A program made the position numbers. From Escherichia coli (lineage in GTDB: Bacteria > Pseudomonadota > Gammaproteobacteria > Enterobacterales > Enterobacteriaceae), in the NCBI RefSeq assembly GCF_029227855.1, contig NZ_CP074357.1: a DNA stretch of 64,000 bases; one strand, 5' to 3'. Positions 12,001-18,000 of this stretch are shown here, one piece after another. Within the stretch, counting starts at the first letter, position 1. The number at the start of each line of letters is the position of its first letter.

Positions 12001-15000
12001 GGGGTTAATAATAACTTTGGCCATACCCTGGTGCTCTGGTCTACGTTGAGTAGAAGTTTGAGCGTTTACGCCTTGCTTTTTATTTGAACCTTTTACCATT
12101 ACATCTTTTGGTTCAATGTTAATACGCTCATTGTCCGTGATAATTGCGTCGGTCATTGTGCCACCTTAGTTTTTGAGTATTGACGGATTTTTCGTCCAAG
12201 TTCGATATATGCTGAATGATAGAGCTCAAGCATTTCTCTGTAAGGCTCCAGCAATGCTTCCGTTTCAGAAATCATTTCGTATTCCCAGCTGGCATGGTTT
12301 ACAAAACAGTTCTTAGAATATTTTCCACTTTTCATTGGTTGCACCCGTTTTGACATGTGACTAGGCGCTCTTGTTTTATAAGGGCTGAACTGATGCCAAG
12401 TGATCGTTACTTTTCTGGCATTACCAATTAGCTCAACTTTTGGTGCGTAAGAACCCAGATACTCCCTCTTTGGAACTTTGCTATGTCGGGTAAGGTTAAT
12501 CTCTTGGTGGTTTCGTTCCTTCCACTTGATCCAGTATTTTGTAATGAGATCTTCAGCCTCAACACGCAAACCTTCAATCTGAGCACGTAAATTTTTACGT
12601 GTTAGCTCTATAGAACTTATAAGATTCGAATTACTCATGACGCCTCCTGATGTGAAATTACTATACCGGAGGAAATTTCCGTTTTTTTTCACGAACAGAA
12701 GATTTTTGAATGCTCTTTGATGAGGGAATTGAACAGATGTAATGCACTCGCTGTTTCCCCCATTCGGGAGGGGCCTTCAGAAACAGTAACAGCGAGTTTA
12801 GCCTCACTTCCATCGCTACCCTCTAAAGTTACTTTTGAGGGAATGACCATTGTGGATTATTGCTTTTGATAATGTGCATTGCTCTATTAAAGTTATACAT
12901 ATATCTAGTGCCACTTTTCCAAAAAAAATGACCCTATGGAACTTTGTCCATAGTGACACTTTTATAAAAAGTGACCCTATGACGACATTACATAGGGTCA
13001 CTTTTCAAACATAAGTGACCCTATGTGAGGTATTCATAGGGTCACTTTTCTTTGTTTAGTGATCCTATGTAAGCATGAGGTTGATGAAAAGTAAAAATGT
13101 CAGTTTATGACGGTCAGTGAAAGACGTCGTTATTCTAATCCAACGTTGGGAGGGGCTGGATTTAGGTTTTTTTTTAATCGCTTCACATTTCGTTAGCATG
13201 CGAAGAAATTTTGATAAAATTCTGGTCAGTTTGGTTAAAAAGTGTTACAAGTAAGCGGTGTGGTTGAAGGGATAGATTTAAGGCTTATTCAAGCCTTAAG
13301 AAAATACTAAAAGTTACTTTTCACCCTACCGAACACCTAACAAAAAATCCATGTTGAAGATTTGAACAATTGTAATGGCGCAAGGACAATCAGCACATGT
13401 CAGAATCTGATAATTTAACTCGTAGCTTACTCGGTAAACTTTTCCGCACTGAGATTTCGCTTATTCGTAGTTACCGTGCATTTTTAATGTTATTGCCTGT
13501 GCATGGATCTTCTGCATATCAAACTGGGACTCCTCTTCTCCAGCGTCGCCTATTTGGGAAAGGATTTAGTACAGCCGCTGATTTAGCTTTTGAAGTGGAA
13601 ACACGTCCAGGTAGTTTTTTGGTTCCGCGTACACTCGGAAAGGAAATTACATGGGAGAGGTTTTTTTCTGCGGTCTTGGACGGTGATTCCAATGTAATTC
13701 GTGAATATGATACAAATGATATTGACTATGGTATTTACGATGCCGGTGAAAAAGTGACTTTTCTGAATGGTACAGTGGATATCTATAATCCCAAGAAGAT
13801 TCATGAGTTGCGTTCTAAATGTGTTGATATACAGAATGACTACTTTATGCAGGTGTTCTTTATCTCAATGCTCGCACCAGAGTTTGTAAGTGTTTTCTTT
13901 GGTTTAAAACCAACTACAGCTGATGCTATTAAAGACATTGGTTATTCATCGTTAAAAACAATTAACGATGTCGTTCTTTTCCCACGTACAATTGCTTTCT
14001 CACAAGGGCATATTGAAGAGAGTGTTTCACTTAAAACGAAAGTTTTTGCCTGGGCTTATGAATTGTCTGCTGACATCCGGTTAGGAAAAGTTAGTGATGA
14101 TTTGATGGAACTATTACGTTATGACACTATGTTCACCAGTCACCGTCAGGATGTGTTCAACACTTTAACAAATAAAGTTATGTTAAAGGATTATTAATAT
14201 GGCAAAGGTCGATCAAACAAAAGCTAATGCTCTATTGCGAGCAGCAAGGACTATGTCGCTTGGGGCAAATAAAAATACAATACGAATTTTGTACGGTAAT
14301 CATGTTGCTGAAAATATCGATTTTGAGCCTGGTGCAAAAACAAAACTCAAAAAAGGTATCCGGGGCTGGAGCAAACGCACAGATAACCGCCGAGCTTTTT
14401 CTGCTGTTATTGATGTCGCAGTTAACTATTTTGGTTTTGATCCAATAAATCCGGAAGCGAGTTTTCGGCAAATTGACTTCAACCGAATAATGAGTGTCCT
14501 TCATAATCTGGGATACTTTGTATGCGCACCGGAAGTTAATAAAATAATAGAAATCCTTACTTCTATGAAAGAAATTGAAGAACTAGGTGCCTGCGAAAAA
14601 TGTAAACGCCCATACATTGTGCCAGTGACAAATGATGCTTATTGTCCACGTTGCAGATTATCTTCAACTGCTTCAGCCATAGAGAGGTATTCTCAAGAAG
14701 AATTAGATTAAATTTAAAAAAGATATCGCGAAACTTGCCTTGTCTGAATCTAAATATTGACTTAAGTCAAATTCTGTTGTTTGCTTTACAATCAAATATT
14801 AGTTACAACTTAAATATTAACTCTTGACAAGTAAAGATATAATTTGATTTTTCTTTATACAGTCTTTCTTCGTTCCAAAAAATGTTCACCTTTTTTTCTG
14901 TTGAAAACGTAAAACTACTTAGGTTCTCTAAAACCTTCTATGCATGACGACTTCTTAATCGCTTTCAATTAATATATTTTATATTCTTGCCTAAGTTCGC

Positions 15001-18000
15001 TTCTTTGATCCTTAGCTATTCCTTCTTTGAAATATAGAAACAGCGTTACTGGTGATGATTTTTTTCAGCTCTTAATACACCTGTTTTCAAAGCAATATTT
15101 GCTTTTAGATATTCGATAAAACCATGTTTTTGTTACACCGGATTTTTCACAATGTGCAAGATGGATGATCTTTCCATCACCGAGACTATCTTCTTAGTCA
15201 GCACTCCTTTTCCGTCCTTTTCAACATAAAAACGACCATGCTATACGAGCTCTAACCTTTTTTTTGTATGCCATCATAACCGCATCAGAAAAGGAGAACG
15301 GTCTATGACTCGTATTGCATTAGCGCCTTCAAAGATGGTTTTGCTTATGTCTTTGGTAATTACTGGTGCCCACGCCAGCCCTGAGCAACCCCTAATAAAA
15401 GATACGCCCTTTGTATCAGGCCAGGCTTATAAGAAGGGTTTCTTCTGGTATGACGATCCTGCTAAAAAAAGCGAAGCTGAAGAAGAAAAGGTTTTGCCAC
15501 CAACCGGTGCTGCTAGCTCGCCTTCAAAAGAGGAAAAGGTAGATTTAAATTCAAAATGGCTAAAAGAGAATATGCCTCGACTGTTAACGCAGGCAATGGA
15601 TAACCCTACCGCAGAAAATCTATCACGTTATTACACGGCGCAAAGGTTAATGCTGGATATCAGTACGCGTTTTTCTGACAAATCAAAAGATTATTTTCTT
15701 AAAAACCCGATGATGTCTGAAAAACGCAGGCAACCAGTGGAAAAGGTGGCACTGGATGCTCACCGCACTGTTGTTGAAAAAAATCAGCAAACGGTAATGA
15801 AAGATATCTTTACTAAGTCAGGTTTATTTTTCTTTTTCCAGAGTACTTGCCAGTTTTGCCACGAAGAGAGCCAAATACTTCAATTTATGCAGAACTATTA
15901 TTCGGTAGATATTCTTCCAATCAGTATGGATGGAAGGCCATTGCATAATGGCCTTTTTCAGGATTTTAACATCCCCAATGCACAAATTATTGATCAATTT
16001 AAAATTCGAGAGGTACCTACAATTTTCCTGGTTTCAAAGGATGGGACATCAGCTCAGCGCATTAGTGAAGGCATGATCTCCGCTGATGAATTAAAGAACA
16101 CTATTATACTTGCCGCGAAGGGCATGAATCTGATCGATGACGCTTCGTTTCAGTCAACTCTAGATATTAAAAGGCAATATACCATCGGTGATGATGGCGT
16201 TATTACCGTTAATAAATCCGAAATGGAATCAGACCCATTCTTACTTCAAAAAATAATGGACCAAAAACTCGAAGGCTATGACATGCCTACGGCCGATCCG
16301 GTCAATTATCTCAATGCTGGCGGCAGTTTTGGAGGCACTTATGCGCAGTAATGCCGTTTTCAACTTCAAAAAGTTACTTTTGTCTCTTTCTGTTTGTGCT
16401 GCAATTTTAGCCCCGACTGCAAATGCAGACAACGCAATGCGTAACATTTTCAATGGCATGATGACGTCTACCAGCCCGGCCACCTTTTCCACAGCAACCC
16501 GTACAGGCATAGTTGGCGGGTCAATGTCTTACCGAACAACAAACGTTAATACCAACCTTGTTTCCATGTCGTTTCCAAAAGCTTCTGTCGGTTGTAATGG
16601 TATTGACGTTTTTCTTGGGTCCTTCAGCATGATCAACGGGGACCAGCTTGTGCAGGTGGCCCGTGGTATTGCCCAGGGTGCGGCTATCTATGCTTTTAAC
16701 GTTGCTGTTTCAGCTATTTGTGCTGACTGTGCTGCAACGATTAATGACATCCAAAACAAACTGCAAGCGCTAAATAAATTTGCGAAAGATTCATGCAATG
16801 CAACTTACTCTTTCCTTTCTGAAAACGTGGGTACGCCAAGCCAGTTCGCTAACTCAGTTAGCTCTGGACCAGCCTCAATTCTGGGATCGATTAATGGTCT
16901 CATTCCTGATTTTGGCTCATCGATGACAAAGTCACCTGAAGCTGTCACTTCTCAGGTTAAAGCAAAGGATCCCGAAGAGTTCGCTGAAAAATTCAGTGGT
17001 AACCTCTTCTATATGTCGTTCATGGATATTGATAAGGGAACAATGAACATCGGAGGGGTAACGGAGTTATCCGGTTATAAATTGGCAGAACAACTTATGT
17101 CTCTCGTGGGTACTGTCATTATCAACTGGGATAGCAAAGGCGAAAAAGCGGGAATGGAAGTCCGCCCGTCTACCATGACTGTCACGGATTACATCATGGG
17201 GCCACCAGCTGGCGGATCAATTAAAATGCTCAAGTGTTCTCCGGCACCAGATCCATCATCCCCACGAAAGGCTCAGTGCCTTGTCATGTCAGAAGTTAAT
17301 GACGGTGGTTTTAAGGGATTGAAGGATACCATTTCTGATCTTCTTTTAAACGTACAGAAAAAAATCATCAACGACGTTCGTGTTTCAGATGATGAATTAC
17401 GCATTATCTCCTATATCGGCATCCCGACCATTATCGACTCTTTGCAAACATTCGAAGCACCGGAAGGGTACGCATACATTCAGGACATAAGCACTATTGC
17501 TGCGACGAGCCTCGTAATCAACATGTTGCGCCAGGTTGAGGCCAAAATTTCAACCATGAGCATACCGAGTGAGTCGCTGTCGGGTAAAAGGGATGATCTC
17601 AACCGATTAACAGACAATCTCTCAAAACAGGTTAAAGCCGCCTATGAGCTATCGCACAGCCAGGTCGGTACCAGCTCGGACGTCATTTCAACCTGGGATA
17701 ACCGTCGCCTGCAACGGAAGGCTTTCACTGAAAGTATTCGTGGCACACGTAACTGAGGTCTGACATGGATTACAACATATATACCCTGGGTGATATTGAT
17801 TTTGTCTGGTCGGCTTTTACCGGTATTGCCCTAATCTTTTCTCAATATACTGGTGTAAAAGAGTTCCTGACCACGGCCGCCGTTGTAGCAGGTGTGAGCC
17901 TATTCTATAAAACGTGGCTATGGCTTCAGGCTCCGACCAAAAATGAATTACCGTTTTTCTCCTGGTTTTTGGGGTTGATCCTTTTCATGATGGCAATGGT

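Follow-up and report, generated by a model that had tools for sequence, protein, structure and literature searches.

We analyzed an intergenic gap of 593 bp on an IncHI2 plasmid of Escherichia coli (NCBI RefSeq assembly GCF_029227855.1, contig NZ_CP074357.1). By "the window" we mean the whole 64,000-nucleotide stretch of this contig that was analyzed. The gap lies between a trhY-like gene and trhF, and its edges are exact: the trhY-like open reading frame (ORF) stops at 14711, and the ATG of trhF is at 15305 (Table 1). This segment of the window is the Tra1 region of the plasmid, and the gap is, in the nomenclature of the IncHI1 plasmid R27, the trhY-trhF interval, which separates the R operon from the F operon (PMC7366339). 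We found 962 plasmid records that match a 3.1-kb query around the gap at 95% identity or above. All of them are typed as IncHI2A with a MOBH relaxase and MPF_F, and they are from Escherichia, Enterobacter, Salmonella, and Klebsiella. IncHI2, IncHI1, and the IncHI1B/IncP group share one gene order (mobH-mobI / trhR-trhY-gap-trhF-trhH-trhG) and have gaps of similar length (593, 611, and 615 bp, respectively).

Table 1. Features of the trhY-trhF gap and its surroundings, with positions in the window.
Feature	Position	Strand	Remarks
MobH relaxase gene	8263-11415	-	followed by a hypothetical gene, then mobI
mobI	up to 12692	-	a non-coding stretch lies between mobI and the trhR-like gene
trhR-like gene (266 aa)	13397-14197	+	first gene of the R operon; R27 counterpart is an activator component
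trhY-like gene (170 aa)	14199-14711	+	second activator component; CxxC-X13-CxxC invariant
Intergenic gap (593 bp)	14712-15304		end of the R operon to start of the F operon
Distal spacer	14712-15150	+	GC 0.29, sense C/G 1.49, G-poor, neutral rate of drift; factor-dependent termination and H-NS coating may occur here
Repeat copy 1, AAATATTG	14752-14759	+	overlaps the palindrome
Perfect 14-bp palindrome, TTGACTTAAGTCAA	14757-14770		read from the sequence; only in the two IncHI2 lineages
Repeat copy 2, AAATATTA	14794-14801	+	
Repeat copy 3, AAATATTA	14812-14819	+	AAATATCA in IncHI2 lineage 2
Best sigma-70-like match in the gap, TTAACT-15-bp spacer-TATAAT	14817-14843	+	weak candidate distal promoter, not conserved
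IS1 target duplication	14823-14832		plasmid NZ_CP039440; right beside the AAATATT cluster
ISKpn26 (IS5-family) target, TTAG	15012-15015		plasmid NZ_OQ078086
Module, upstream half, ATGCTATACGAGCTC	15238-15252	+	family consensus C-Y-TTAY-n-GAR from the 8-sequence alignment
T8 tract	15258-15265	+	length T7-T9 across all lineages; a single base separates it from the downstream TATG hexamer
TATGCCATCATA, invariant core TATG-SS-AT-S-ATA	15267-15278	+	invariant alignment columns; unique in the window
Shine-Dalgarno AAGGAG of trhF	15291-15296	+	8 nt before the ATG; GGAG/GAGG in all lineages
trhF, TraF-like thioredoxin-fold pilus-assembly protein	15305-16351	+	first F-operon gene
trhH	16341-17756	+	Pfam TraH 4.8e-57; PGAP annotation, start mapped from record L001
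trhG, TraG N-terminal domain protein	17765-21718	+	PGAP annotation of an identical plasmid

The initial annotation had described nearly 600 bp of AT-rich non-coding DNA upstream of trhF, trhH, and trhG, with three closely spaced AAATATT-type repeats and multiple A/T tracts, and had proposed this DNA as a candidate binding region of H-NS or a transfer regulator for the control of conjugation. The description is accurate. The GC content of the gap is 0.32, the downstream genes were correctly assigned (to the TraF/thioredoxin family, the TraH family, and the TraG N-terminal family), and the gap contains three repeat copies within 68 bp as well as 19 A/T tracts of at least 4 nt (in the top 2% of segments of the window). 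A role in conjugation control is supported by synteny and orthology with the R27 interval, but the repeats and the A/T tracts did not hold up as the regulator-binding feature: the cluster of repeats is not conserved, and the conserved sequence is at the opposite end of the gap. Overall, the gap is an ordinary and essentially already known kind of regulatory region.

The counterpart in R27 is well characterized (Gibert et al. 2013, 2014, 2020; PMC7366339). It lies at the same position, and the flanking proteins are similar: TrhY is 85% identical at the amino acid level to the IncHI1 copy, and TrhF is 84-86% identical to the IncHI1-type copies (84% for R27). The product of trhF also matches TraF from Pfam (2.6e-51) and TIGR02740 (2.5e-98). 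The trhR-like protein is 77-80% identical to IncHI1-type copies, and the name trhR is given at the syntenic position in IncHI1 and Pantoea records; no Pfam or NCBIfam family matched this protein. In R27, a fusion of the F promoter to lacZ is induced by TrhR together with TrhY and is repressed by HtdA, and overexpressed TrhR/TrhY switch on the F promoter even at 37 °C (PMC7366339). In an htdA mutant of R27, the values for trhY and trhF are 788 vs. 3523 at 25 °C and 770 vs. 28 at 37 °C (PMC7366339, supplementary table). These values show that the F operon has an independent and strongly regulated promoter and that there is no read-through across the gap. By orthology, both properties would carry over to the IncHI2 gap.

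To the extent that the IncHI1 and IncHI2 gaps are similar in sequence, the similarity is next to trhF. They share CGAGCTC ... T-tract ... TATGCCATCATA ... GGAGA.CGGT ... ATG, while the distal ~500 bp cannot be aligned. Neutral sites have reached saturation between IncHI2 and IncHI1 (the identity at fourfold-degenerate sites is 0.30), and the identity of the distal gap, at 0.24, is not above that of shuffled sequences (0.34 ± 0.06). The last 80 bp are 0.60-0.68 identical. The two lineages of IncHI2 give a similar picture: 13 of the 13 differences between their gaps are at 14818-15153, and there are none in the last 151 bp, where 4.4 would be expected at the distal rate (P ~ 0.012).

We aligned eight sequences from five or more lineages, and this alignment defines a conserved module in the last ~70 bp of the gap (~15238-15304). 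The module consists of C-Y-TTAY-n-GAR, about 9 variable nucleotides, T7-9, a single nucleotide, TATG-SS-AT-S-ATA, about 25 nucleotides that include the Shine-Dalgarno sequence, and the ATG. We searched for the core elsewhere in the window and in Tra2, and did not find a second copy. The module is kept in Klebsiella and Raoultella plasmids, and TrhY in those plasmids is only 33-36% identical. (The comparison for Klebsiella is with the copies from IncHI-like plasmids.) The two natural insertions in the gap, of IS1 in NZ_CP039440 and of ISKpn26 in NZ_OQ078086, both spare the module. We rejected the idea that these insertions are a recurrent, spreading variant, as each junction is unique to one record. 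Separately, in the Raoultella plasmid pWLK-238550 (record L017, ~1290-1458), an IS30 ends ~75 bp upstream of traF and leaves only the conserved module (CCTTCCTTATTGAAG...T9-ATGGGATGATAA), which resembles a natural deletion experiment.

The module does not look like a standard promoter. A strict scan of both strands of 14712-15304 for sigma-70 promoters (16-18 bp spacing and at least 9 of 12 matches) found nothing. We also took the operons that need TrhR/TrhY in R27 (F, H, AC, and Z) and aligned their leaders on G-TATnnn. The invariant TATGCC/TATGGG of the F leader occupies the place of the hexamers G-TATTAT, G-TATAGT, and G-TATCAT of AC, H, and Z, respectively. The conserved form of the H leader is GTG-A8-N16-G-TATAGT-...-CATCAGGAGG, and the AC leader has A6-G-TATTAT with 47 nt to the ATG. 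All four leaders are short (27-47 nt) and none has a -35 consensus; in F and AC, a homopolymer run abuts the hexamer. Short leaders that lack a -35 would be expected for activator-dependent promoters, and we propose that TATGCC is a non-canonical -10-like hexamer of an activator-dependent promoter for the F operon. We considered a box for TrhR/TrhY that would be shared by these operons and rejected it: the H, AC, and Z leaders share only the general architecture with F.

A similar arrangement is known from the traFHG (mpf3) promoters of IncA/C and SXT/R391 elements, which have a homologous MOBH/MPF_F backbone. There, traF-traH-traG are driven by a two-protein activator that is encoded by the element (AcaCD or SetCD), from a promoter without a -35 (class II logic; PMC4542580). 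This makes AcaCD/SetCD a useful working model for TrhR/TrhY. In contrast to the IncHI gap, the traF upstream region of IncC is only 110 bp and contains a GC-rich palindrome (GCGCCCTAAATGGGCGC) and no T-tract/TATG module, so the proximal module is specific to IncHI. We rejected the idea that TrhR/TrhY are FlhC/FlhD-like proteins of the AcaCD/SetCD type, as no profile from Pfam, NCBIfam, or PDB matched. TrhY by itself was searched for family and PDB matches, and there were none. Four cysteines near the C-terminus of TrhY (132, 135, 149, and 152, arranged as CxxC-X13-CxxC) are invariant in all lineages, which suggests a zinc-ribbon-like site. An AlphaFold model of TrhY, built from a shallow alignment of 5 sequences, had a pLDDT of 50 and was unusable.

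Upstream of the module, the gap has the look of unconstrained DNA on this plasmid. The gap is far more AT-rich than the window (GC of 0.32 vs. 0.484), and only 0.5% of 593-bp segments are equally AT-rich. It ranks in the top 2.6% for TpA steps, and no other 200 bp in the 64 kb are as AT-rich as 14701-14900. The GC content of other intergenic regions of the same backbone is 0.30-0.50, and that of fourfold-degenerate sites in trhR and trhY is just 0.26-0.27. The AT-richness and T-richness of the gap look neutral because they match the fourfold-degenerate sites of the neighboring genes: the distal gap has a GC content of 0.29 and a pyrimidine content of 0.585, compared to 0.26-0.36 and 0.51-0.60 for the fourfold sites of the adjacent genes.

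One competing explanation is that, beyond ~80 bp of promoter and leader, the gap is functionless DNA at mutational equilibrium, and that the repeats, the palindrome, and the tracts arose by chance. This would also explain why the distal sequence diverges as much as shuffled controls do and why IS1 and ISKpn26 were able to insert in it. However, the gap has kept a similar length (593, 611, or 615 bp) in lineages whose neutral sites have reached saturation, and this is a mild argument against pure filler. Also, the R27 data require transcription to end efficiently between trhY and trhF, although the gap has no intrinsic terminator, and a C/G ratio of ~1.5 recurs in IncHI1 and IncHI2, above that of fourfold sites and of other intergenic regions. 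We think that pure filler is improbable, although it is the most serious of the competing explanations.

Something must stop transcription in the gap, because trhY is high in the R27 htdA mutant at 37 °C while trhF is low. We found no intrinsic terminator (a GC-rich hairpin followed by a U-run) in the gaps of IncHI2, the IncHI1B/IncP group, or the pNDM-MAR type. The IncHI1 gap has one marginal stem of 5 bp, which we did not count as a terminator. The sense strand of our gap has 115 C and 75 G (C/G of 1.53 and 12.6% G), which is the most extreme combination in the window (0.04% of segments), and C/G is 1.2-3.1 in 78-nt intervals across most of the gap. For comparison, C/G is 1.48 in the IncHI1 gap, a weaker 1.10-1.18 in the other homologous gaps, 0.71-1.11 in other co-directional intergenic regions, and 0.88-1.22 at fourfold sites. 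We had considered strand asymmetry as strong evidence of selection, but the fourfold-site control weakened this argument, and only the excess of C over G survives. The predicted structure of the distal RNA is no better than chance (fold z = +0.09). The C>G excess, the unstructured RNA, and the lack of an intrinsic terminator would fit a loading region for Rho. Like known Rho-dependent terminators (rut sites), the gap has ~500 nt of untranslated sense RNA with C/G of 1.5, no significant structure, and no intrinsic terminator. It differs from them in that C exceeds G only modestly, and background accounts for most of the pyrimidine bias.

We next consider the AAATATT repeats. Three matches to AAATATTR are on the + strand (14752, 14794, and 14812), and a fourth is on the - strand (15093). 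Just 0.04% of dinucleotide shuffles of the gap have at least three copies on one strand (P ~ 0.0004 for this word). Since the word was chosen after looking at the sequence, it is fairer to ask how often any reasonably complex 7-mer would occur three times within 60 bp, which gives P ~ 0.017. So, the cluster is modestly non-random. In principle, the repeats and the A/T tracts could be specific operators or nucleation sites for H-NS or for a transfer regulator of the trhF operon. The cluster overlaps the TTAACT-15-TATAAT match as well as the 200 bp with the highest AT content in the window, and the R27 htdA mutant at 37 °C has trhF off despite high trhRY mRNA, which leaves room for direct silencing. 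But the spacing of the copies is irregular (42 and 18 bp), and a natural plasmid tolerates IS1 at 14823-14832. In the sister lineage of IncHI2 (the pENT-8a4 type, or lineage 2; ~448 records, 98.3%), T14818C destroys repeat copy 3 and leaves two copies. There are 0-1 copies in IncHI1, in the IncHI1B/IncP group, and in two Klebsiella IncHI-like lineages, and the gaps of these relatives contain no other repeated 7-mer and no 14-bp palindrome. Because the relatives keep the order of trhR, trhY, and trhF without the cluster, a family-wide regulator cannot depend on the repeats. Furthermore, TrhR/TrhY activate the F promoter of R27 at 37 °C if they are overexpressed. We consider specific operators at the repeats to be quite unlikely. 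The cluster and the palindrome, which are both specific to IncHI2, are probably incidental by-products of drifting AT-rich DNA. The sigma-70-like match that overlaps the cluster is a weak candidate as well: its score in a heuristic weight matrix (11.0) is only in the top ~7% of 660-bp segments, the strict scan misses it, and T14818C weakens its -35. Other short direct repeats echo the T-tract module upstream (15120-15133/15254-15267, AACCATGTTTTTGT / AACCTTTTTTTTGT, and 14888-14897/15255-15264, ACCTTTTTTT twice). These are probably chance matches in T-rich DNA.

H-NS could still act on the gap in a less specific way. In R27, H-NS reportedly silences trhRY at 37 °C (Forns 2005 and Gibert 2014, as cited in PMC7366339). 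The gap resembles the H-NS-silenced promoters of acquired DNA, including that of R27 trhR, in that it is AT-rich and non-coding, has A/T tracts and TpA steps, and is upstream of thermoregulated transfer genes. It differs from them in that it has no enrichment of the motif, no strong predicted bend, and the composition of the plasmid's neutral background. Specifically, the high-affinity H-NS motif of Lang (tCGATAAATT-like) is not enriched, with 1 match (2 mismatches, at 15113) vs. 0.84 expected. Curvature, as roughly predicted with a wedge model with approximate angles, reaches a minimum end-to-end ratio of 0.885 at 14929, which is only at the 5th percentile; the same model predicts a stronger bend at ~13213, upstream of trhR. 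Judging from AT content alone, the gap would be a generic substrate for H-NS, and direct binding is plausible. A second temperature-dependent layer at or near the gap is possible, by analogy with R27, because trhF is off at 37 °C in the htdA mutant even though trhRY mRNA is abundant.

The non-coding stretch between mobI and trhR contains a much more regular array. At 12927-13069, there are seven copies of AGTGACCCTATG (four are exact and three have 1-2 mismatches), in strictly alternating orientation and every ~21-22 bp. The copies fold into a long double hairpin (z = -10.2 for the DNA fold), and the array has sub-threshold matches to miRNA-precursor families in Rfam. There are no copies in the trhF gap or in Tra2. 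As a candidate array of repeated binding sites, it looks far more convincing than the AAATATT cluster. It is probably related to oriT and the relaxosome, or else it serves to control the H and R operons, which are divergent.

Regulation might instead be at the level of RNA. If trhF were transcribed from a distal promoter, then the long leader could form a fourU-like thermosensor or attenuator, in which the U-tract and an AUGC stem pair with the Shine-Dalgarno region. The transfer of IncHI plasmids is temperature-sensitive, there is a TATAAT hexamer at 14838, and 15180-15330 folds better than its shuffles (z = -2.24; the range within IncHI2 is -1.45 to -2.24), with the U8 tract paired to AGAAAAGG (the purine run of the Shine-Dalgarno region) and an inner AUGC/GCAU stem. 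However, the folds differ and are non-significant in IncHI1, the IncHI1B/IncP group, and Klebsiella (z of -0.2 to -0.86), and it is the primary sequence that is invariant. Moreover, a hairpin of the fourU type would open upon warming to 37 °C, the opposite of the observed expression at low temperature. The distal TATAAT, whose spacer is 15 bp, is not conserved, and nothing in Rfam matches the gap. (No covariance model of Rfam 15 had a match in 14712-15304, even at E ≤ 1.) We set the hairpin aside as it is significant in IncHI2 only and is not conserved, and we consider control by the leader RNA to be very unlikely.

We also checked if the gap might encode a protein. The only ORF of at least 30 amino acids that is wholly within the gap has 30 amino acids and starts with TTG, and no small ORF is common to this gap and that of IncHI1. 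In Klebsiella plasmids of the pNDM-MAR type and related IncHI-like plasmids, there is an extra ORF of 180 amino acids between the trhY-like gene and traF (L006 3530-4072, L007 3536-4078, and L016 552-1094), which is followed by a gap of 365-372 bp. This ORF matches no Pfam family and is missing from IncHI1 and IncHI2, and tblastn found no traces of it in our gap (all E > 0.3). Given no conserved small ORF and no remnant of the 180-aa ORF, we rejected a hidden gene or pseudogene. Sites for CRP are absent from the gap at up to 2 mismatches, and their counts across the window are at chance level.

In our preferred explanation, the gap corresponds by orthology to the trhY-trhF interval of R27, and its two parts, a proximal promoter module and a distal spacer, differ in function. 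We put the probability of this at roughly 60%. The proximal module would be the core of the F-operon promoter. With no usable -35 and a poor -10, this promoter would be silent unless TrhR and TrhY are active, and HtdA would counteract their effect. The distal spacer (~440 bp) would act via its bulk properties, as its sequence drifts neutrally while its length and overall composition persist. Its untranslated, unstructured, C>G RNA might allow Rho to stop the trhRY transcripts and so insulate the F operon, and as AT-rich DNA it would likely be a passive substrate for H-NS.

Several observations weigh against this explanation. No copy of the F module precedes the other operons that depend on TrhR/TrhY, and we found no shared activator box. 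The final T of a canonical hexamer is missing from TATGCC/TATGGG, which scores -3.8 in the heuristic sigma-70 matrix, and we assigned bases to the F promoter by their position. According to PMC9598596 (citing Gibert 2014), TrhR is a membrane protein, and direct binding of DNA by TrhR/TrhY is not documented in the literature that was accessible to our search. The functional data that we could draw on are all from IncHI1 (R27; PMC7366339), not from IncHI2. As for the spacer, the AT-richness, the T>A bias, and the pyrimidine excess are equal to those of fourfold sites in the flanking genes. Of the compositional evidence for Rho, only a modest C>G excess is then left, and the distal part may have no function.

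A stronger version of our explanation is that the gap is a two-part insulator and switch, whose sequence is free to change while its physical properties are conserved. It would combine a Rho landing zone of ~450-500 nt, perhaps reinforced by H-NS, with an activator-dependent T7-9/TATG-SS promoter. This version is tentative, and on balance we doubt it. If it is true, then the ~600-bp length and the depletion of G on the sense strand were kept in IncHI1 and IncHI2 despite a complete turnover of the sequence, and they uncouple the activator operon from its target operon. Also, the T7-9 tract that abuts TATG-SS, which is conserved across all IncHI-like plasmids including the Klebsiella pNDM-MAR type, could be the site for TrhR/TrhY or for the temperature signal.

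We noticed other insertions that affect the activator operon. In NZ_CP043034 (pXDL-CTX-M-14, record L022), ISKpn26 is inserted at CTAA 13337-13340, ~57 bp upstream of the start codon of trhR. This splits the operon from its native upstream region, whose R27 counterpart is silenced by H-NS, and could alter thermoregulated transfer of this clinical plasmid. In NZ_MF135535 (pHNTS53-1, record L002) and NZ_MF135534, IS1 interrupts trhR (at 13681-13690 in the window). MOB-suite types these plasmids as "conjugative," yet, going by the sequence, they should lack the activator that is needed for expression of the tra genes. There is also a clash of names: PGAP calls a 170-aa gene in Tra2 (L010 28558-29070) "IncHI-type conjugal transfer protein TrhF," but the gene that the R27 literature calls trhF, at 15305-16351 in Tra1, has only the label "thioredoxin family protein."

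IncHI2 plasmids are major carriers of mcr-1 and of genes for extended-spectrum β-lactamases and carbapenemases, and their transfer is temperature-gated. The promoter of the trhF operon is the standard read-out of this temperature gate in R27. Our results leave the current picture of IncHI regulation unchanged, and the eye-catching AAATATT repeats are unlikely to be a control element. Their practical value is that they point to the ~70-bp module at 15238-15304 as the candidate bases for the action of TrhR/TrhY and HtdA, and to the distal spacer as a candidate for insulation that would depend on Rho and H-NS.

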